A stretch of DNA of 35,703 bases. It comes from Rozella allomycis CSF55. Its lineage: Eukaryota. The number at the start of each line of letters is the position of its first letter. Positions within the stretch are counted from its first letter, which is position 1. The notes under the pieces were generated by a model. That model saw only the letters and a program-made list of their open reading frames with translations, was not told the DNA's origin and searched no databases. Shown piece by piece: positions 1,192-32,254 of this stretch. The translations under genes were made by a program, and so were the position numbers. The stretch covers positions 62,001 to 97,703 of the forward strand of contig KE560937.1 of assembly GCA_000442015.1 (NCBI GenBank), written 5' to 3'.

Positions 1192-4100
1192 TTATTCATT
1201 GAGTTGACAGAGCAATGCAACGCCCCTGGAGATCCAATATTCCGAAGGCTTGTCAGAATTGAGAAATGCCGCTAGAACATAATTTGTAGATTGACCTGAA
1301 ATAAACATGAAATAATTTCAATACCAGTAGTTGACAAGGTGCCCGCTCTAGCAGATGTCTTGTACAGAGGACATTCATATAATTTTGAGTTTGGCGTGTA
1401 CTGGGGTGTTGGAATAAACTTTATGACGGGCATTGGACAGTACATTTGCATTGGCAGTGAATCTTGCAACAATTTCTTTTCGTTATCCCAACGAGCACCT
1501 TCGAGGTAGAGCCCATGCACAAGAGTTCCATCGTCATCGATATCCAAATCTGAAATTTCGTTTGCATCTTTTGATAGAACGGAAAATGAGAATGATAATT
1601 CGTCAATAGCAATTTTGTTTTTTCTTGCATAATTTTGAAGAATTCCCGTAAGAAAGCCTTTTATTAAGAAATCATGTTATTACCTTGAGGATAAAAGAAG
1701 CCAGAAAGCCAAAATGATTTGGGCTGCCCCTTTTCAATCCAATCAGCCATGAATTGAACTCTTTTCTGTAAATCTTTGAACCAAGATGCCAAAGGCTTTA
1801 ATGACGGGTAAGCAGCGTTTGACCAGATGAGCGGCACTTGATTGTTTAATAGACTGTAAAAGACCAAATCAAGTTCAGACGACATGACCACGAGCCCTTT
1901 GACTGCTTTTATTAAATTCTCCAAAGACGCGACGATAATTTGAAGTAGTTTATTAAAACGATGTGATTCATGAATAAGAACGGTCAATAAACAATTTTCT
2001 AGTCTTCCGTCTGAATCCACTTTCATTCTTTCGGGTGGTATTAATTCTGGATTTAGCAGTAGAGGCATATCACTGAGCATTGAAGAAGCGAGATCCAAGA
2101 CAATTTCATCTGGAGATTTACCAGCTGAGCCAGACAACAATCTTGGTTGCACGTCAACAACAGTTTGAATTAATCGTTTGGTTTCTTGCAATTGAAAACT
2201 AATGTTTGCGTTTTGATGCATTCCAAATATTTCAGGCTCTTCAGTTAATGGAAGTTTGTCAATGAAGGATCTTACTAGACTCAGATCACCTTCTGGGGCG
2301 TAATAAAATGGCAGTGAACAAAACTTGTAATTCTTTTCCAATATTTTTGGAGTGTAGAATCGCTGCAGAATACTTTTCAGTGTTCTTCTGTCCCAGTCGT
2401 CAGTTACTCTTCCACCAAAGATGATTTCATCAGTCATGTAGCGTAGAGAGTCCCATTGAATAGAATCATTTTCAGCAAGGGTATTTGAGAGAACAGCCAC
2501 AGCTACTTCCAAATCAGAGTTTGACCAATCATAAGGTATGTTCCAACCCAATGGACCAAACTTTTTTCTTTCGTGAATGATTGCATTAAAAAAACTGATA
2601 CCAAATAGCAAAGTTCTAAAAGTGGAGAGTTTAGGATGTTTATCAAAAACATCGTTAGAAATATCAAGAAAGAATCGTTGTAGATTAGCGCGTAAGCCTC
2701 TTGGCGGTTCATTTGTAACTTTGACTCCATCTTGTAGAATAGAAATAGGGAATACTTTTGAAGGCATTGAAGAAACAATTAATCTGAAATTTGGATGAAT
2801 TTGAGCATCAGCACTAGAAAATTCTTTAACGATGTTTTCAAATCTGGGCATCCACGAGGCAGCCAAGTGACAATTTTGTAGAAAGACCCATTCGCCAGTG
2901 TTTGTAGCTTTTTTGATTAGTTCTTCAGCAATAGTGCCTTGGCCTTGGCCAAGTGATATCATTGTAAGTTTATCTGAATAGCCAACATCTTTAGCGTATT
3001 TCAATAGAGCACTAATAGGATCAGAGCCTGGAGATAGAACAAATATTAAAGGAGAAGTAATGCTAGTGTCTTCAAATGTTTTTGCTAGATCAAAAGGTAC
3101 AGGGTCAACAAAACAAGATCCCAAATTTTCTTTAATGAATTCAAATGTAGATCCAATCACAGATTCTTCTCTTAGAATTTTTATTAAAATTAGAATATTG
3201 AAGCTTGTTAATCTATCAGAAACATCAACAGGCAGTCCACTCTTAAATGGTGTTTGAGAATCCATGAAATCATTAAACATTGAGGGATTGTTTGAAATCA
3301 AATCAAAAGATTGCTTGAATTGTGGCAGTGTTTGAGATAGATCAAAAATAGATTTCCAAATAGATTCAGTCAACCAAGATATTTCAGGTTTAGGGGGTGG
3401 CTTGGTTTGAATAGAAACGTTTCCTCTTAGAAAGAAATTCCATTCAGCATCAGTAATCAATCCCTTTTCTTTTAATATTTCAATACAGATTAGAAAAGAA
3501 AAGATTAGTTTGTGTTGTTCAAATAAACCTCTGGAAACATTGTTAAAGATTGAAATTGTAATATTCTCACATAGATCAAGAATGTGTTGGTCTAGAATAT
3601 CAGATTTAGGTGTGTTTATAATGCACGAATTGAATAAATTTTTGAAATATTTTAAAGAGAATTGATACATTGGATCTATTTCAGATAAATCAGAAATAAT
3701 GAAATAGAGAATGGAGCCTCTAATGGAAACAGGAAGATACGCTTCACGAGCTAAATTGATTTCAGCTTCAGTTTTCTCAGCTTGTTGAACTCTTTCTTGA
3801 ATAGCAGCACTAGTCACTTTGGACTGATTCAAAGCATCTATCAATTCTTCATCATCTAGAATATTCCCCTGTGAATTATAAAGCAATTTCAAAATCTTTT
3901 CTTCAATTTCTTTTAATTGTTTTTTATCTTCAGCCATTGACAGAATCAAATTGTTTCTTTGCTCTTCTAAATCTGGTCGTTCTAGTTTAACAACGTCACC
4001 CAACAATTGACCAGTTAAACCAACTTTGGTGACAGTAAAATTTATTATTGTAACTTTAATACAAACTTCAGGCAGATAATGAGGATTTGATAGTTTAGTT

Positions 4101-7100
4101 GTCATGTAAAATCTAAAATTCTTGTCATAATCAACATCAGCATCACCCAATCTAATTAACACTCTACCCCCTTGCTTAAAGGTTTGTTTCAACAACAGGG
4201 GCTCCAATGCAGGGTCTAATGTTTCACCCACATCTTCCAATAAAACAGGATTTCCCAATCTAATCGCATTTTCCAAATTTCTTAAAAATTTTGGATCGTT
4301 TAATTTTATTATTTTCAATCCATTGTTCATCTCCATATTTCTAATCCATCTATTAGCTTGTCCAGATGGATCTATCATCAATGGCCATCTTCTACCCCTG
4401 GAAACTAGAATACCATTCTCTATAGACAAATCATCATTAGGCAATCCTTTTAAATTCCATTCTCTAATCAACACTTGATCTCCCAATTGTTTGGTTAAAT
4501 TAAAACTAGATGAAACTGGAATACCCAATTCTTGGCACTTTGTTACCCACTTTTGTCCCAATGTCAATCTATAACTAGATGTAAACGCTCCAAAGTATGC
4601 AACCCCAGCTGCTGCTAGAAATATATTCCCTACAACATCATTAATCTCTTGATCCAAAATTTTAACTGACTCTGTCCATCTAACTTGCTCTTCAGCTAAT
4701 GCAGATGTCAACTTGCTAGCTCTTGTTAATCTATTAGAAGTCTCTGCCATTTTATCTTGCAGATTCTTTTTTGATGCCAAACTGGTTTCATATTTCTGCT
4801 TCAAATTCTTCAATTGACTTTCAACTTGTGCCAACGCATTTGCCTTTTCTTGCAGCTTTGATTTCATTTCTTCTAACGCTAATTGTGCATCTTCTAACTT
4901 TTTCTTTTTAGGCACAACTTCTTTAAAAACCCTTGCATAAATATCCATCGCTCTAACCCACATGCACATTGATTTACACGCCTTTGATACCTTTTCTACA
5001 TTCTCTGGAGTAAACACTGGATTGTCAATATATTTCTTAATCTTCTTAATCACTGCCTCTGGAATGTTATCTTTATCATAGCTCATCATATTCTTTAAAA
5101 ATTGTGAATCTGAAAGCAACTTTTTACTAGACTCCCAATCTGGCTTCACTTTAAACAAAATACAAACAGCTTCCATCACAGTCATTACAAGTTCTGGGGG
5201 TTTAGTAAACGCCTTCATTTCAGCTACATCCTTTTTATCCAAATTATCCAACGCTGAATACGCGGCTTCTAACGCTGGCAACGCTTCATCCAAATCTTTT
5301 TGTGCATCAGCTGCTATTTGTTCTGTTAAAACTGCCTTTTCTTTCACAATTGCTTCTTCTTCTCTCACAGTCTTTTTCACACCATCAGCCACTTGTTGAT
5401 CTTTGGAAATTTGTGAAATCAAAACTTCAACATCTTCCGCCTTTTGTTTTAATTCTGGTTTCAGATTCTCCAACTCTATTTGCATCTTTGCAACAATTTC
5501 ATTTGTTTCCTGCAACTTGTTCAATCCATTCTTCAATCTATCTCTATTAGAAACTAATTCTCTCTTCTTTTCTGATAACATTAAAGTATACAAATTAATC
5601 AACTCTAAATAACTAGTTGGTGTTGTGTAATATCTTCTTCTCAACTCTTGATAAAACTGTTCAGCAATCGTTTGCACACTTGTATGAATTTCGACGCACA
5701 TTTCAGCTATTTTATTTTTCAATTCAGGTTGACCTAGATCCACAAACTCTAGAAATCTAGATGAAACAGACAGCAAAGCTTCTTTGGGCCAAACATCAAA
5801 CCAATCTATCGTGCAACAATTAACAAGCGATGGGAACATTCTACACCTATTTCTAAATGATTCTCCAACTGGTGACATGGCCAACACGATATGCAAATTA
5901 TCTCTCACTCTATTAATAAAGAACTGCTGCACACTATCTCTATCCTCTCCATAGCCCTTATCTTTAGCCTTTTGCCTCAACTCTCCCAAAATTCTTTCCC
6001 TCTCTTCAAAATCAAATAGATTTGGTATCTCTCCTGTATTCAAAATACTATTAATATCTTCCAGAAATGACTCTGATTTGAATTGCGTATCTGATATCAA
6101 AAATACTGTATTCTTTCCTTCCAGCCCAGCAAACCTATACAGCCTCTTTATATCTTCTCTCCATTCATTAGTCCCATAAGTTCTAGTCAATTCTATTTGA
6201 ATGCATCGATACTCACAAATATGACACGCTAATCTAGTCAATGATTGCTTTCCCGTTCCTCCAACTCCAACCAACAATGCATTGCCTCGTGGCTGATTAA
6301 TCACTCTGCTAATCCTTGACAAGTGTTGTTTAGCATCCATGAAAAATATCAGTCTCATTTGTTTAGATGACAAAGTATTATATTCTTCCAAATAATCTTC
6401 CAAAACATTCTCCATCACTTTCTTATCTTTTATTTCTTCATAATTCTTATCATCTTGTGATGCTCCTCTCTTCATGAAATCTCCAAATATTATGGGATCT
6501 TCTACCATGCTCTCTTTACTAATCCCCTGTCCAAAATTCTTTTCTGTTAGCTCAGACAATATTGAATAGAAATAACTCTTGTCATTAAAATCAATCAATC
6601 TGTCATGAAACACCCTCGAACATTCATGACAAAACAACCTCGTCATATCCACCCTTGTCTTTATTATATTCGGCTTTGCTTGTGTTATGCCTTGAATCAC
6701 TTTGGATAAATCTCTCATATTAAACGTATAATGCGATTTATCTAATCAATGTGTTTAACCTATTTTACTTGGTGTTGGTAACAATTCTGAACACATTCTC
6801 TTGTAGATTTCAACACTGCTAGAAACAATCGCATCAATACCTTTTCTACATTAACAAATACACTTACATGTTTGAACATCACTCTCAAACTTTTCTAAAA
6901 ATCCCTCAACTATAGACTTGAATATGCGGACTTGACTAACTTCTGATGGAGTGGCAATGGAAAAAACATTGAAATGTCTAATCAGCCGCTGCGTAATAGT
7001 ATTCCTTCCACCGCCTATTCAATGTCACAATATATTCATTACCCGGTGGCGCACATGCTCCAATTATTACTACATCTTGAATCTTCTTCCAAAATAGCTT

Positions 7101-13684: not shown

Positions 13685-13831
13685 ATAGTAAACAAACAAA
13701 AAAGTCCGGCAATCAACATTAAAGAAATTCATATTTAAGAAATAAAATAGGATTATAATAAGGATTAAAGGATATTGAATTTCATCTCAAAACAAAATAA
13801 CAACTTAAAATAATTGGGGGTTATTCACCAT

Positions 13832-13879
13832 GTCACTTTACATAAAAATACATAAGTCACATTACATAAAAATACATAA
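13832..13879. repeat. 24-bp tandem duplication (2 copies, 1 mismatch) upstream of the dynein start
   Basis: gtcactttacataaaaatacataa (13832-13855) is followed directly by gtcacattacataaaaatacataa (13856-13879). Confidence 0.85.
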
Positions 13880-14208
13880 ATGGTAAAAATATTAAAAGAC
13901 TTTACCAAGGTTAAATGTTTGCTGCATGGTTGTTTCTCATAATTAAGAGCCAAACTAGTGACTATTACAAGACGATAGAATATGCTGCTTTTCTCAGCCG
14001 CAGGGCGAGATCTTTGTCCATCCTGACGCGGAAGTGTACAGTATGAAATCCCCGGAGGGAACTGCTTCGTTTGTCCAGATGTTAATCTATGAAAAGTCTA
14101 AATTTCTCAAATAATTTTTAATCCAAAATTTTCATAGGTTATGGCTATTAATGCAAACAGACCTGTCGTCATCTTCGATTTTTATTTTTCGTTAGTTTTA
14201 AGACAAAA

Positions 14209-16119
14209 TCATACAATTCTTACATCTAGTTCTCCATTAAAAGGATGTCGCCAACCACATTGGAATTGTTCTTGGCCGTATAATCTGGAATTCATCGTGC
14301 TAGTATTATAGCCAACATGATACATGAGTAATGTTTTCGTTGCCACCATTTTACAAGATGAGCATTCTTGAAAATGTCCTCGCAAGCATTTCTGAAGGAT
14401 TACATCGGTGGGGTAATTTGATTCGTTTACCTTACTCTTTTTACTTTTAAAAGATTACTAAAAGATTTGAAAGAGTATTCGCTATTGTCTGCCTGAAAAT
14501 AAGGCCACTATATTTTTAAATTTGCATAGTTACCTTCCACCAGTCCCTATAAATAAAGAACAATGATCAGGGGACTCCAGTTGTAATTGATATAATGCAC
14601 GCATAAAGGTTGACCATTTTCCTTCACACAAAGGAAAATCGTCTTCGATAAGAGCAATATATCTGGAGTCGAAAGAATTTGATGCCAATGCAATCGCCTT
14701 CGAAAAGTGCAATCTTTGGTTGTAGGTATCACCGTCCAGCTGGACCCATTTCAGGAATTCATTTGCCTTTTTATTGTCTTTCAGAAGGTTTTTTGCCTTG
14801 AAGTATGTTTCGTGAAATGAAAAATGAGTAAACACGATCATTTTCATTCTTTTGAATAAAGGATGGTTTGAATCATCGGGAAATTCTTTTAAGTATGACT
14901 GTATTGTGTCTATCAAGTGACTAGGATTTCCGGGTCTTGGTGCAGTCATAATTAGGAAAGTTAATATAGGTTGATCATTTTCACCCAATTGTGCAATTTC
15001 AAATGGAGAAGGCGTAATTTGTGGTTTCGTATGAATAGTATTGCTAAAACAAAGAACAAAAAGCAAAATAAACGAAAACAAGTATAGTTGCCTCAGCCAA
15101 CCCTTCCTTGTCCAGTGTGATCTGCATTTTTCAATTACTTCCCATCCTTCCCGGCTTTTCGAAAAAACAATGAATGTTATAACTTGCAGAGTACCTAGTA
15201 AAAATGACGATATATGCCACCACCACTTGCACTGAATTGTCAATGGTAATGACATAAAGCATAACATTAAGTAACTTTTTCTGACAACTACCGCAAAACT
15301 TTTTTGAGCTGATTTCAGGTCTTCAAAAATGACCATGTACCTATCGCCTGATCGTAACGATTGTAACATCAATATAGCCCATAATAACGGATATAAGCCT
15401 ATTAAATATTTTTTGATCATAATACCTTCAGACGTTTGATGCATGGCTTCGTTAAAAAATAGTGAGGGAAAAGTCCATCCAATTGCCCGGGAAAATAGAA
15501 ACCCGATACCATACTGTATAATAGAAACCATGATTATGCTTAAGAATAACAGATATTTGAAGCTTATAATAGGACCTACAATCCCTGATAGCGAAGATTC
15601 TAAAAGCCATAATGATACAAACGAAATAAGTGCTTCAAACGGGTTCTTGATCAAGAATGGGGCCATGTAATATCCCGTAAAGTCTTTTCCAAAATATACA
15701 TATTTTGTTGCCGCACCTGAATATTCTAAAATTCCGCTACCTTCCATCAACGTGATGCAAAAGGACAGTAAAATGACGAAAGTAGTAGCTGGCAAAAATT
15801 CTAATTTCAATGACGTAAATATATTCTGTCTGAGCACAATTGTATCGCAAGAATTATCGTTTTTGAACAAATTGCTATTCCTGACCACCTCAAAGGTTGA
15901 ATAAGGCAATGATGGAAACCATCTTGAACTACTTCGCTCTGTGTTTGTTAAATCAGAGATCCCCTCCTGTGTAAAACGTACCTTCCATAAACCTGGCAAC
16001 AACTTAAATAATTTTTGGGCAATACTTTGCTTGCCATTAATGTTATTTTCATTTCTGTGACTATATTGTTTTTCTCTATCCTTTAATTTGACAAGTTCGA
16101 GAACTTCAACGGCTGTCAT
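14209..16119 (-). CDS. Multi-pass membrane protein with a C-terminal GT-A glycosyltransferase domain (GT54/MGAT4-like)
   Basis: N-terminal region has about 6-8 hydrophobic segments. Then LTFLIMTAPRPGNPSHLIDTIQS and YIALIEDDFPLC (EDD metal-binding motif as in MGAT4). Two short introns (26 and 28 nt) extend the ORF via GTGGSGLIF to ...YHVGYNTST...CGWRHPFNGELDVRIV* (stop at 14209). A 27-nt in-frame intron is likely at 15425-15399. Confidence 0.65.
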
Positions 16120-25945: not shown

Positions 25946-27031
25946 ATGAGTGAGTGTGAGAAATCTCCAGCCGATTCCATAATTTCATTTACAGAGATAC
26001 CAAATCCCAGTGATTTCGATAGTTTTGGTAAGAAATAATTAAATATATGTTTCAGGTTACGTTTATGGTGGTTCTGTTCTCTGTTGGATGGATGTGGCAG
26101 GAGGAATGGCAGCCAAAAGGCATTCAAACACCATTGTAGTAACAGCAAGCGTTGTAAGATATATATAAATCTGGTAAAAGGACGCTGTTCATTTTCTTAA
26201 TCCAATCAAAAAGGGCTGTGTAGCAAAAATTTACGCGCGAGTGAACCGATCATGGAATTCGAGCATGGAAGTTGAAGTTTTGGTCCAATCCGAAATATTA
26301 TTAACTGGAGAATGTCTTCTTTGTTGCCACGGTAAGTTTTGCCTCTAAAGATTAAATTAGCGTATTTTACCTTTGTCGCGATAAAGGATGAAAAGCCGAT
26401 ATTGGTACCGAAAATTGTCCCCAAACTGAAAGAAGAAATTTTACGATGGGAATCAGCTGATACGAGACGTACAATTCGATTTCAAAGAAAGAAGAACATG
26501 AAACCAGAGTTGATTAAACCAACTGATGTTGTGTATGCGAATGGAAGTTGCCAGATTATAAAAATGATAATGCCTGAACATACTAATCCGATGAATATAA
26601 CATTTGGTGGAATGATAATGTCGTGGATGGAGCATGCTGCGTATATTGCGGCAACGAGGGCTACGAGGACGCATTTATTGACTGCTTCAATGGACCAGCT
26701 GCAGTTCCATAGACCTTCTATGGTTGGCCATTTGGTTACTATTGTAGCCAGAGTTACGAAAGTGTTTAAGCAAAGTGTGGAGGTGTATATTGTTGTGAGA
26801 AGTGAAGATCCGATTACCAATCAAGTACAGTTGACGAATGATGCGTGGATCTCGTTTGTCTCTGTTGATCAAAATGGGAAACCATTTCCACTAAGTGATG
26901 TAGAAGAAATAGGAGAGGTGAAAACTGTTGAAGCAGAAAAGAGAAAGAATCACAGATTGGAAGAAAAGAGGCAAATTTTATCAGAGAACTCTGAAGATTG
27001 GGATATCACTCATCAAACTAGCGCATTTTGA
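25946..27031 (+). CDS. Acyl-CoA thioesterase with two hotdog domains (ACOT7/11/12-like)
   Basis: Introns 26028-26055, 26154-26180 and 26332-26360. Domain 1: GYVYGGSVLCWMDVAGGMAAKRH...VTASVDAVHFLNPI...SSMEVEV. Domain 2: PEHTNPMNITFGGMIMSWME...TASMDQLQF...SVEVYI. Confidence 0.88.
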
Positions 27032-27086
27032 TGTTTCATTAATGAATAAAGAGAAAATTTATTAAGTTGCAATTATGGACTTACTA

Positions 27087-30000
27087 TTAGTTAGCTTTGA
27101 TAATTCGACTGCCATCTAGAACGTATCCATTTGCTTTTAATTCATCCAAAGACTTTTCTACTAATTGTTCTAAAAACAATTTCTTTGCACTGTCCAAGTT
27201 TGAATCACTTTTCAATTTTAGTCCATAAAATGATGGATTTTTTAGCACTCTGTTTGCCAGAAAACTATTTTCAAGTAACGCAAGAGCGTCTTTAAAGGAT
27301 TTGATGTTACCAATTTTGACTTGGGAAAGTAAAAGTTTAGGGAAATGCAAATGAAGGTTTGATTCTAATGGAAAAGGTTCATAAAGGAATTTTTTGTAGT
27401 AAGATTTTTTGATATCTTGAACAAGAACGACGACTGTTGACATTTCGTCTATTTGGGGTCTGCCAGCTAGACCCATCATTTGATGAATATCGGCTAATGG
27501 ATAATCAACAAAACATTTTGATTCAGAGTCAAAGTATTCCGTGCCTATTAAGATTGAAATATTAATTATTACCTAAATAAATGAAGAATGTAAGTGTTAC
27601 CTTTGATGATGACTAGATGAGCAGGAAACCGTGATTCCCAAGCGAACCCTTTAACCAACACCAACACCAATATTTTATTCATAGAAAATAGCATTCTAAC
27701 AATCCTCTTGTCATTATCCTTCAATCCATAGTGCATGAACCCAATTCCGAATCTTAAAACATGTTTCAATTGTTGATCTTGGACGTTATCTAGAACATTT
27801 TCAATTTCAGTGTCGACTTTGAGATAGTTGTTATTGATTGTGCAGTGAGCAATTAATTCATGGGCAGTGGCTACAGTTTGATTTTGGGACGAAACAAAAA
27901 CAACTGTTGGCTTTGATGAGGAGTATGTTTCTATTGCTTGATATATTGGTTTGTTCATTAGATTCATTCTTGTGGAATAATTCTTGTCGTCAAAGCCTTG
28001 AATGTAGACTTGAAGTGGGAGAGGACGAACATTTGGTTTGAAATTGAACAGATTAGATGAAGGTATTTTCAACCAATCAGCAACATCTTTAACGTTTGAT
28101 AAAGATGTAGACAAAACAATCATTCTAATTTTATTGTTAAAGTTCTGTAATTGATGAATATGAGAAATCAATATTTCTACACTTGGATTTAAATCCAACA
28201 AATGTATTTCATCAATAATTATAAGAGATATTTGAGATGAAAAGAATTCCAAATTAAAGTTTTGATTTTCTTGAATTGATTCCATCCACTTTTCAGGTGT
28301 TGACAAGACTAGTTGAGAAACATCAAAGTCGCTGAAACTTCTTAATTCATTCATGGGGATGTTTAATCTTTTCCAATCTCTACTTTTGTCTTTCACAATT
28401 TGTTTCAGTGGAGAGAAATAAATAATTTTGCCATTTGGATTATTTCTTAGTGAATTCCAAATAGTAAATTCAGCAATCAATGTTTTACCAGAGCCTAATT
28501 TATTATGTATGAATAGAATTTACCGCTGGGTGCTCCAATGAATAGATTTGACGTAGTGTGATAAGCTTGATGGAAAACAAGAGATTGAATTGGATTGAAA
28601 TAGTTGATGTCTTTGTAGATTTGTATTAACTTTTCGTCCATGAGACTTGATTTATTTAAAAGATTCAAAGGTAATAAATCTGTATGAAAATTTTCTACTT
28701 TTGGCATTATTAAATCATCAAGTGAGATTGGCAAATGAAATTCACAATGTAGCCATTTGTCACTAACAACAGAAATTAAAATTTCATTTGGTTTTGGATT
28801 AGCAATTGGAATGAAAAAGTTTACGAAATTTACAGAATGAAAGTTTTGTTTCGTTAAATAAAATGGTTCAGAATGATACAAAAACAAGCCATCAGAATCT
28901 TTTGCAAAGATCCAAAATAATTCAGAATTGGAATGCACAGAATCATTCCATGTAAATTTTGTCTTTATTTTTAAATTAACTTTGACAACATTGTTAGAAA
29001 TTGGTGAAATTTCAGATTCTAAAAATAGATTTGGAAATTCATGAATTGCGTTGAAAACAATTTTGCCTTGATTTGGATTTAATAAGTTTGACAAATCAGA
29101 CAGAGAAAGAGATAAAAGTTCATCAAAGGAATATTTTTGGATTTTGAATAAATAGTCATTTTTAATTGATCTGAATTGAAATAGAAAATGATCATCCAAC
29201 CAAAGTCTTTTTTCAATCATTTTAGCTAAATTTAACGACATTTCAGCAGTTGAAGCCCAATTTCTTTTTAATGAAATTTCTAAAATAGATCTGATTAATC
29301 TAGAAGCATTTTGAATTATGTAATTTGTGTCAGATATTAATGAAAACGAATTTAAATGGAAATTAGAAATATAAGATTGAAGTAGAATGTTAACTTTACC
29401 ATTTACAGAACAAGATCCACCGAGAACCGGGATTAAACAATGGTTTTGTTCAATTGAATCTAATTCTAAAACTTCTTCTTGTCTAACTTTAATATTTTGG
29501 AATTCAAAAGATGAACAAAGACAATTTAAAACATTTTTAATGTCCATATCCATTTTTAAACTATTTTGAAATATTTCAACTGTTTGATGTTTCAAATAAT
29601 AAAGAGAAGCAATTCTACCCAAACTCTTTACATTAAATGATAAATTTTCATTTGAATTTGACAAGGGTTCTTTAACAATTCCAATCATATCAAGTTTATT
29701 CAAATATTCCAAAGAACTTTTAATAATCTCAATCAATTTATTTTCAATATTCTGACTCAAATTCTGATTAATTCTAATTCCATATTTCAATGGATTCTTT
29801 CTCATTCTAACGTACAAATAACTATATTTCAACCAATTTATTGCTTCGTTTAAATTAGAAACAGTCCCAAGCGTTATTTCTGCATTTAAATTATCAACCA
29901 GATTGTTATTAAATTTCGATTCAATTGGAATTTGATGTGTTATACTTGAAACATAAAAATTTAATTTTTCATGTCTTGTTATTATTATCCCTTCTCCATG

Positions 30001-31983
30001 ACTTTCATATTGCGGCCTCCCTGCTCTGCCAAATATCTGCAAAACATCTAAAATTCCTAAATCTACAAATCCTCCCTTTTCTGGATTGTAAATTTCCGTT
30101 CCTTTGATTATTACTGCGTGGGCTGGTAAATTAACACCCCAAGCCAAAGTAGCAGTACAAAACAAGACCTTTCATAATGAATGAATCTAAAATGTTACCT
30201 ATACTAATGATTGTAAGTTTTGCTTACCTAAGATAATGAATGCACTATAGACTTTACCTTTATCTTGCTGGTTTCAAATAACTTTTCCACCAATAATCTG
30301 TCACCTCTAATCATCCCCGCATGATGAATCCCAAGTCCATTCGGTACCAATTCTTCTAATTGTCTGTTTCTACTATTCTTTCCATTCCAATTATTCTCAA
30401 CCTCAAATAAATCAATACAATCATATTCTCTCATTAACTGAATAAACTTTTTAGCACCCTTAAATGTTGCATTCCTTGAATGCACAAAAATCATCACTTG
30501 ATGTCCCTGTCTCAAATACTCACACGTTCTTTCAAACGCAATCACATCCATCTCTTCCAAAACCATATTTTTATTATTTCCTTTAATCCCTACAAACTTT
30601 TGCGTCAACGGGACTGGTCTAAATCTTCCATCAAAATAAAACATTCCATTCACATTCACATTCAGAAATTCAGCTACATCCACAAAATTTGGCAACGTTG
30701 CTGATAACCCAACAATTCTTATCATCTTTTGCGTCATTTCAATTTGTCGCTGTGTTCTCGCTACAATACTCTCCAAAACTGATCCTCGCTCGTCTTCAAG
30801 TAAATGAACTTCATCTATAATCAACAGTCTCACCTTTTCAACTAGATCAACATCATTCTTTCTCGTTGTAACATCCCACTTCTCAGGCGTTGTTACTATG
30901 ATCTGGGTCTCTGCTATTTCAGATCTACTCAGTTGCATATCTCCTGTATATTCCCTAGTCTTAACCCCCAGCTTTTTCAATTGTTTCTCAAACTTTCCCA
31001 CAATCTCAGTTGCCAATGCCTTCATCGGCGCAACATACACAATCTTAAATGCATCCTTGTCCAAATTTCCTTTATCATTCACATTTGTATATTGTTCAAC
31101 ACAATGCATAATCGCTAAAAGAGCAACATTTGTCTTTCCTGCACCAGTTGGCGCACACACCAAAACATTCTCATTACGCTCGTAAATAACTGGAAACACC
31201 AATGATTGCATCATATTAAACGTTTCTATATTAGAAAACGCAACTCTGGAAAATTCATTCACTCTATAAGTCGGTACCAATTCCACTTGTACATCTCCTC
31301 CACTCCTCTCACTCGGAATAACAAACTCTTCATACAGCTTATTATCATATCTTTCAGTGCCGGCAGGTAACGCTATTTTAGTGCCGAAAGCTGACAGCAC
31401 CGACGTAGAGCTGGGCTCCCCATACACATGTGGGTACTTTTTCGTTTCTCCAGTCTACATTACCCTCTTGCCAACAATCTTACCACTCTCTTTGAAAATA
31501 TAGATTCATTAATTGACTCATTTTCCTTTTTCTTTTTCAAATCTCGAATCCTTTGAGCATTTTTCCTACGATCCTGTATTAACTTGAAAATCACGTCTAT
31601 CGAATCGTAACCAACAAGTTCCAAGATTTCTTCCTGTATCTCATCATCTATAAACAAAATAATATATCATTTGTACCGCTCATGTTGCATTCAAGCATCT
31701 CTACCATCTTGTCTTGCACATAATCGACTCCCAATTCCCAATTTCGCGTTTCAAAAAATCTTTTAATCCAGTCTTCACTAGAATTTCCTGTTTCTTTGAA
31801 TCTTTGGGTTTTCATTTGTTCCTCTGTTGCCCAGTATCTTTCTACTAACTGGCGAAATTCGAATACTTTGGCTCGCTCGCCCGGAAGATTCCAGTTGACT
31901 GGTTCTTTGCTTATATCCACGGGACGGAACTTTCCTTTTGATATTCTTGATTTTATCAAATTTATTCGGTCAGTGAAATCCAT
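27087..31983 (-). CDS. ASCC3: ASCC3/Slh1 (Rqt2) Ski2-like dual-cassette helicase with a degenerate C-terminal cassette and no final Sec63 domain
   Basis: YPHVY and ALPAGT N-terminal motifs. Cassette 1: APTGAGKT, DEVH, SAT, TATLAWGVNLPA, DLGILDVLQIFGRAGRPQ, then Sec63. Cassette 2: APSGSGKT, DEIH, QMMGLAGRPQ. Five intervening sequences, two of which are stacked mini-introns. Confidence 0.92.
27545..27600 (-). other. Composite 56-nt intron made of two abutting 28-nt introns (zero-length exon)
   Basis: AAAG|gtaacacttacattcttcatttatttag|gtaataattaatatttcaatcttaatag|GCACG. The flanking exons give the contiguous motif IIKG-TEYF. Confidence 0.85.
30169..30257 (-). other. Composite 89-nt intron made of three abutting introns (30+29+30 nt; two zero-length exons)
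   Basis: AAG|gtaaagtctatagtgcattcattatcttag|gtaagcaaaacttacaatcattagtatag|gtaacattttagattcattcattatgaaag|GTC. The flanking exons give contiguous KIK-VLFCTATLAWG. Confidence 0.88.
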
Positions 31984-32254
31984 TTCTGGAAATTTGCAGA
32001 TAGCGATGGGTCATTTTGAGAACCGCTACTGAATATGCGTGTGCATTAATTATTCTAAAAAGTTATATTTGAATTATTTATAATAAATTAGCTATTCTGC
32101 CATTATTTAAGCAAAAATTTTGCAATCGTTCATTTTGATTTTTCAAACAAGGGATGCTTGCATTAATTATAAATTATGATGTATTTGTGGCAATTACGGG
32201 CCTACGGCAAATCTATGCAATTAATATCATTGAGAAATTTCTCCAACCAAACTA

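Follow-up and report, generated by a model that had tools for sequence, protein, structure and literature searches.

A minus-strand helicase gene of Rozella allomycis CSF55, a fungal parasite, is interrupted at two places by gaps that divide exactly into abutting units of intron size. The gene lies in a stretch of 35,703 nucleotides (nt) (GenBank assembly GCA_000442015.1, contig KE560937.1, positions 62,001 to 97,703 of the forward strand), which is called the window throughout and within which all positions are counted. One gap, at 30169-30257 on the minus strand, consists of three abutting units of 30 + 29 + 30 nt (units 1, 2 and 3 in the direction of the gene; 89 nt in total), and the other, at 27545-27600 on the same strand, of two abutting units of 28 + 28 nt (units A and B; 56 nt in total). 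The observed anatomy is non-random. Each gap, here termed a stack, would be a short array in which complete U2-type introns of very small size follow one another in tandem, separated by exons of zero length, and from the sequence we lean towards the reading that the stacks are tandem duplicates of a tiny intron, which afterwards diverged and perhaps exchanged sequence between units.

All five units carry a GT donor and an AG acceptor, as U2-type GT-AG introns do, and their lengths of 28-30 nt fall inside the range of the single introns of the window. The latter, 32 introns confirmed by frame continuity within this one 35.7-kb window, provide 496 pairs and 4960 triples and serve as the background for all comparisons below; they measure 26-31 nt with a mean of 27.7 nt, so that each stacked unit is of standard size, and 27 of the 32 start with GTAA, the remaining five with GTAT, GTAC or GTAG. 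The exon flanks read AAG|GTC at the three-unit stack and AAG|GCA at the two-unit stack, which bears out the AG|G context that an earlier note on this DNA, made from the sequence alone, had claimed for both. The internal joints are AG|GTAA, and once unit 1 is taken out the exon end AAG comes to stand next to GTAAGC, whereby a donor is regenerated.

Excision of exactly 89 nt joins ..SKIK|VLFC.. and excision of exactly 56 nt joins ..VIIK|GTEY..; both sequences are contiguous in the consensus of 12 homologues as well as in the public protein P0121 ('Sec63-domain-containing protein [Rozella allomycis CSF55]'), which is 100% identical to the helicase over the covered part. Retention of any unit leads to a stop codon within 4-15 codons, and conservation of the protein supports removal of the whole array only. 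The earlier note had also envisaged stacks as a route to new micro-exons, for which no evidence at all was found; the middle unit was rejected as a candidate micro-exon, since it has 29 nt, introduces a stop if retained and corresponds to a place where the homologues have no extra residues.

Likeness at the junctions and among the units

Junction microhomology, defined as the identical bases extending left and right of both intron junctions, amounts to 6 nt (AAAG|GT) for the three-unit array and to 3 nt for the two-unit array, whereas the 32 single introns average 1.1 nt and reach 5 nt at most (0 nt at twelve, 1 nt at eleven, 2 nt at five, 3 nt at two, 4 nt at one and 5 nt at one). An AG|G exon context surrounds both stacks, but only 2 of the 32 single introns. 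The numbers are small, and their direction fits slippage or unequal exchange between junction repeats. Under the proposed mechanism, the units would be diverged copies of one tiny intron already present at the site. Look-alike junctions, AAAG|GT in the case of the three-unit and AG|G in the case of the two-unit stack, would allow slippage or unequal exchange between the junction repeats, by which exactly one whole intron would be copied, and the AG|GTAA joints of the then abutting units would constitute longer repeats that make further gain, loss and exchange easier. Each unit has a donor and an acceptor of its own and standard length, from which it follows that removal could proceed unit by unit, in any order, or across units, always with the same mRNA as the result. 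Both the mutational mechanism and the unit-by-unit splicing are what we infer.

The units of the three-unit stack resemble each other in a specific manner. As described in the earlier note, all three carry a related 10-mer that ends exactly 5 nt before the 3' end, which was confirmed on the minus strand. The exact 10-mer CATTCATTAT has two occurrences in the whole window, both strands considered, and both lie in this stack, in units 1 and 3. A shared run of 10 nt at equal 3' offset is found in none of the 496 background pairs, the maximum being 9 nt, and these longest background runs arise because a TTAATAAAAG-type 3' end, shared by several unlinked single introns, is common among the introns. 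When the interiors of units 1 and 3 were shuffled with their composition kept, a shared 10-mer was obtained with P about 0.001. Unit 2 departs from the 10-mer at 2 of 10 positions (CAATCATTAG), whereas none of the 32 background introns has three or fewer mismatches to it at its offset. In the 13 nt that precede the AG, 28 of 39 comparisons among the three units are matches, a value reached by 3 of 4960 background triples (P about 6e-4 for the similarity of the 3' halves), and a repeat search delineated a 17-nt block in three copies, spaced by 30 and 29 nt, with 76-82% identity to the reference copy. Length points in the same direction, as two of the units have 30 nt, compared with only 2 of 32 single introns that reach at least 30 nt (P = 0.006).

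The duplication hypothesis would have lost its ground, according to the earlier note, if the shared 10-mer were just the genome-wide branch-point consensus at that position and identity within the stacks equalled the background. Neither was the case on the 32 introns of the window. The local branch-like consensus near the 3' end is TNAAY, present in 20 of the 32 single introns but absent from units 1, 2, 3 and A, that is from four of the five stacked units; these four carry TCAT in its place, a motif found in 4 of the 32 single introns. The shared 10-mer is not the local branch-site consensus. Comparison of identity within stacks with that of random pairs, which had been recommended for the whole genome and was carried out on the 32 introns of the window, gave a mean of 0.51 within the stacks versus 0.35 in the background (P = 0.0046 by resampling).

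With respect to the two-unit stack, the pair of 28-nt units gains from a second haplotype. For allele comparison, contigs of runs X1, X4, X5 and X6 were aligned to the region; the second haplotype makes up the lesser part of X4 (depth 113.6 of 357.9), and X5 and X6 contain no other form. Over 27000-29700 it is about 1.3-1.9% different from the window. In the 56-nt stack it has 6 differences (about 11%), namely four substitutions, one 1-nt insertion and one 1-nt deletion, compared with 14 in the 1087 nt that flank the stack on this contig. Five of the six fall into unit A, which nevertheless still has 28 nt; both units keep this length, and no change affects the GTAA and AG signals, be they outer or internal. 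While units A and B of the window match at 16 of 28 positions without gaps, as reported in the earlier note, unit A of the second haplotype (a rebuilt allele) is identical to unit B at 20 of 28 positions. The interior identity of the latter pair, 0.64, is reached by 6 of 496 background pairs and its gapped score of 7 by 3 of 496. Eight ungapped sites differ between the two alleles of unit A; at all eight of them one allele equals unit B, whose base is carried by the second haplotype at six sites and by the window at two. Either the second haplotype keeps an ancestral, B-like unit A or unit B has converted part of unit A, and under both readings alike A and B would be homologous repeats, as which the second haplotype makes the 28 + 28 pair appear. 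The clustering of the unit A differences, most of which match unit B, would fit an exchange of the minisatellite type.

Table 1. Positions in the window of the stacked units, their 10-mers and junction repeats, and the adjoining parts of the helicase gene
Feature	Position	Strand
Upstream helicase exon, first DEAD/DEAH cassette, ending ..SKIK	30258..31454	-
AAAG|GT at the 5' junction of the three-unit array, upstream copy of the 6-nt microhomology	30256..30261	-
Unit 1, three-unit stack, 30 nt, GTAA...AG	30228..30257	-
10-mer CATTCATTAT in unit 1, its end 5 nt ahead of the 3' end of the unit	30233..30242	-
Unit 2, three-unit stack, 29 nt, GTAA...AG	30199..30227	-
10-mer CAATCATTAG in unit 2, equal offset, 2 mismatches	30204..30213	-
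Unit 3, three-unit stack, 30 nt, GTAA...AG	30169..30198	-
10-mer CATTCATTAT in unit 3, equal offset	30174..30183	-
AAAG|GT at the 3' junction of the three-unit array, downstream copy of the 6-nt microhomology	30167..30172	-
Downstream helicase exon, winged helix and Sec63 domains, starting VLFC..	28524..30168	-
Single 29-nt intron, helicase gene	28495..28523	-
Unit A, two-unit stack, 28 nt, GTAA...AG	27573..27600	-
Unit B, two-unit stack, 28 nt, GTAA...AG	27545..27572	-

Rival origins and modes of removal

Several observations weigh against descent of the units from one intron by tandem duplication. Positions 5-15 of units 1-3 on the minus strand yield 4 matches in 33 comparisons versus a background mean of 10.5, and 4954 of the 4960 background triples match at least as well as the 5' halves of the units. 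With 5' halves so unalike, the similarity is a mosaic confined to the 3' halves instead of extending over whole units, and the most alike units, 1 and 3, are not adjacent. The low likeness of the 5' halves may be due either to chance or to a pressure that holds adjacent units apart in sequence; should the units be duplicates, the mosaic implies that either the 3' motif is constrained or short conversion tracts keep the 3' part alike. Tandem Repeats Finder detected no repeat in either stack, its sole row being a 6-nt repeat at 27654-27670, outside the two-unit stack. The earlier note had itself called the match of the equally long units A and B weak, rightly so, as the 3'-anchored identity of the reference pair is reached by 56 of 496 background pairs. 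Alleles with one or two units, for which it had proposed to look, did not turn up: between the haplotypes no difference in unit number was seen at 27545-27600, where they agree. At 30169-30257, X4 has one form only and the coverage of X5 and X6 excludes the site. The mean gapped score across stacks (2.0) is not lower than within stacks (1.5), an intron at the three-unit site is found in only one of 79 relatives, and a distant one at that, and the similarity background is that of 32 introns of one window rather than of the genome. The duplication between AG|GT boundaries, as first put forward in the earlier note, is partly supported: the junction microhomology of 6 and 3 nt speaks in its favour.

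Relatives of the helicase were sought for comparison. A scan of metagenome contigs with a single protein found no relative, whereas an alignment-based scan of such contigs recovered 80 helicase loci, all distant, with 31-51% identity. At the three-unit site, 79 loci were scorable, i.e. had both flanking exons aligned, and exactly there the most similar of the metagenome helicases (L004, about 50% protein identity) has a single 67-nt intron, GTACGT...TTTTTAG, with a pyrimidine tract (2973-3039 of that locus), at the same K|V site and in the same phase; this locus is without an intron at the sites of 28495-28523 and 27545-27600. An apparent intron in a further locus, L076, was rejected since it lies at a different position, after TATL and several codons downstream, as was a gap near the two-unit stack in L065, the sole one among 78 scorable loci, which stands in a different sequence context. 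The three-unit stack therefore occupies a position at which an ordinary intron is present in at least one further lineage, and this position is either old or has been hit twice at an AAG|GT site.

An older intron of roughly 60-90 nt might have been subdivided, introns having shrunk to about 28 nt while internal sites arose by mutation, as in published 'stwintronisation'; the resemblance of units would then reflect shared signal needs and not common descent. The 67-nt intron at the exact site of the three-unit stack and the unalike 5' halves of the units suit this model, and passages of a report on Lipomyces describe new functional splice sites inside an existing intron (PMC7138796). We nevertheless regard it as unlikely: the shared 10-mer is atypical for the window and still occurs in each of the three units at equal offset, a length of 30 nt, rare among the single introns, is seen in two units, the second-haplotype unit A is identical to unit B at 20 of 28 positions, the junction microhomology of the stacks is not predicted by the model, and a single deletion would be far easier than the creation of two well-spaced AG|GTAA joints.

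Present removal of the stacks, as opposed to their origin, could also differ from the unit-by-unit course. Each gap might function as one long intron that is spliced out at once between its outermost donor and acceptor, with the internal joints as unused relics or as coincidence; this would not conflict with an origin by duplication. The correct mRNA results from use of the outer sites alone, P0121 is consistent with it, and the second haplotype does not discriminate, as 6 scattered changes would by estimate miss a 6-nt joint about half the time. None of the 32 confirmed single introns exceeds 31 nt, however, the only gaps above this length, two in number, divide without remainder into units of standard length, and the chance that two AGGTAA would cut 89 nt into pieces of 26-31 nt is about 1e-5 to 1e-6, as estimated from composition. 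We regard one-step removal with unused internal sites as quite improbable.

Likeness across the two stacks bears on whether copying was local. The mean gapped global score of the ten pairs among the five units is 1.8 versus -2.8 for background introns of at least 28 nt; five resampled background introns of that length reach the mean of the units with P = 5e-5, and in composition-preserving shuffles the four within-stack pairs give P = 0.006 and the six cross-stack pairs P = 0.0004. Unit 3 aligns well with unit A of the window; among the 32 background introns, the single intron 28495-28523, which belongs to the same gene, has the second-highest mean gapped score to the five units, driven by units 1 and 3. 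The likeness across the stacks is as great as that within them, which points towards a motif in common or a family of introns and away from copying that was purely local, and these scores hint at a gene-local intron family or a shared functional motif. The likeness rests, though, on a low-complexity CATT/TTCA theme and is gone with the unit A of the second haplotype. Copying through RNA, whereby an excised intron would enter an AG|G site in a transcript from its own gene by reverse splicing and then be copied to DNA, so that the gene would hold a small family of related introns, some of them adjacent, could draw on the mutual likeness of the five units and on intron 28495-28523, but is very unlikely given the low-complexity nature of that likeness, its loss with the second-haplotype unit A, a 10-mer that has no further copy in the window and a junction microhomology better suited to an event at the level of DNA.

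Tandem duplication at the level of DNA thus being the origin we favour, a more general and distinctly tentative extension is that the tiny introns of Rozella behave as 'intron minisatellites'. Wherever junctions read alike, whole introns might be copied, lost and exchanged in tandem by slippage or gene conversion, and a spliceosome tuned to about 28 nt might clear the arrays by repeated ordinary rounds of splicing. This would amount to a DNA-level route that alters the number of introns, not their position, in an organism whose intron length is capped.

Genes and introns around the stacks

The window has a guanine-cytosine content of about 33% and uses the standard genetic code, with stop-free open frames of up to 1693 codons. 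It carries genes for a dynein heavy chain and, at about 27087-32010 on the minus strand, for the helicase, which according to Pfam is composed of two DEAD/DEAH, winged-helix and Sec63 cassettes and whose nearest relatives are named ASCC3/Slh1. Within the helicase gene, three stretches of 23-42 nt (27171-27203, 28998-29038 and 29863-29904) are also present on further contigs of these runs, where both of their ends are loose, and would accordingly be small dispersed repeats.

Tiny introns and their arrays matter for gene models, as P0121 is wrong at a tiny intron close to the stacks. At 28495-28749 on the minus strand, the model jumps from ..VSDKWL to RSGKT.. and lacks 75 residues (HCEF...FIGAPS) which the window encodes in frame. 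The absent residues include the beginning of the second cassette's GxxxxGKT loop and the FNPIQ motif, whose F, N, P and Q show no variation in the 12-sequence alignment; calling the 29-nt intron 28495-28523 brings the 75 residues back.

Both strands of the window were scanned for arrays in which GTA...AG units of 22-34 nt abut and the reading frame stays open; only the two stacks and one false hit emerged. This third chain, at 6816/6819-6867 on the minus strand, was rejected, as its second 'unit' is dynein coding sequence running into ..SSVEIYKRM... Within 6742-6867 (minus strand), two 27-nt introns, 6841-6867 and 6742-6768, lie on either side of a 72-nt dynein exon, the start of which mimics an intron of 22-25 nt abutting 6841-6867 and thus gives a false stack. 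The 5' region of the dynein gene, at about 13787-14530 on the minus strand, contains several small exons and candidate introns, some of 56-126 nt; the statement that no single intron is longer than 31 nt therefore refers to the 32 confirmed introns, and further arrays or longer introns could be hidden there.

Comparison with known intron systems

The origin of new spliceosomal introns is a long-standing open question for which few clear recent cases exist. If the duplication reading is true, the stacks represent a very simple route of intron gain, in which a whole intron is copied between its own look-alike junctions. Such arrays would also offer a natural test of whether a spliceosome adapted to tiny introns can handle them only up to a certain length and falls back on repeated splicing. 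A limited literature search turned up no account of tiny introns that abut, either in Rozella or in other organisms; the passages on Rozella in PMC8476143 and PMC6349667 concern intron density only, and the passages of two papers on ultra-short introns (PMC13644364, PMC12862383) are silent on tandem or recursive arrangements.

Stwintrons and 'stwintronisation' have been described in fungi, and the passages on Lipomyces cited above concern new splice sites within an existing intron (PMC7138796). Like the stacks, stwintrons are complex fungal intervening sequences; they are removed by consecutive standard splicing, and small duplications of splice elements are proposed as their origin. In a stwintron, however, the introns are nested, with a splice element of the external intron broken up by the internal one, which fixes the order of removal; the stacks are not stwintrons, as their units abut, each with an intact donor and acceptor, and no order is imposed. 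Introner-like elements are families of near-identical introns which are longer, numerous and dispersed. The stacks resemble them insofar as introns are recognisable as copies of one another, but the units have about 29 nt, are local and have strongly diverged outside a block of 10-17 nt, and no further copy of the 10-mer was found outside the three-unit stack in the 35.7-kb window.

Closer are two other systems. In the model of Rogers, introns are reportedly gained through tandem genomic duplication of an AGGT-containing segment. Cases of such a gain are reported in PMC3265369 and PMC4974935. In the published cases an exonic segment, or one of exon plus intron, is duplicated and the intron appears at a new place. 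As in these cases, the stacks would involve a local tandem copy bounded by AG|GT, endogenous and at the level of DNA, that provides an extra spliceable unit and leaves the mRNA unchanged, and AAAG|GT occurs at either end of the three-unit array, in keeping with the AG|GT boundary of the model. Unlike in these cases, a whole tiny intron is repeated, a site already occupied gains introns and no exon sequence is duplicated.

The second system is recursive splicing at zero-nucleotide exons, or ratchet points, in Drosophila and vertebrates. Recursive splicing is treated in PMC6110456 and PMC10156609. With it the stacks share the juxtaposition of AG and GT in an intervening sequence and a donor that is regenerated upon upstream removal. 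The cases of recursive splicing, however, concern isolated sites in very long introns and were demonstrated by RNA data, whereas the stacks comprise complete introns of 28-30 nt in gaps of 89 and 56 nt. The stacks work like AGGT duplication and zero-nucleotide-exon splicing at once and are, as these two systems are defined, a member of neither.

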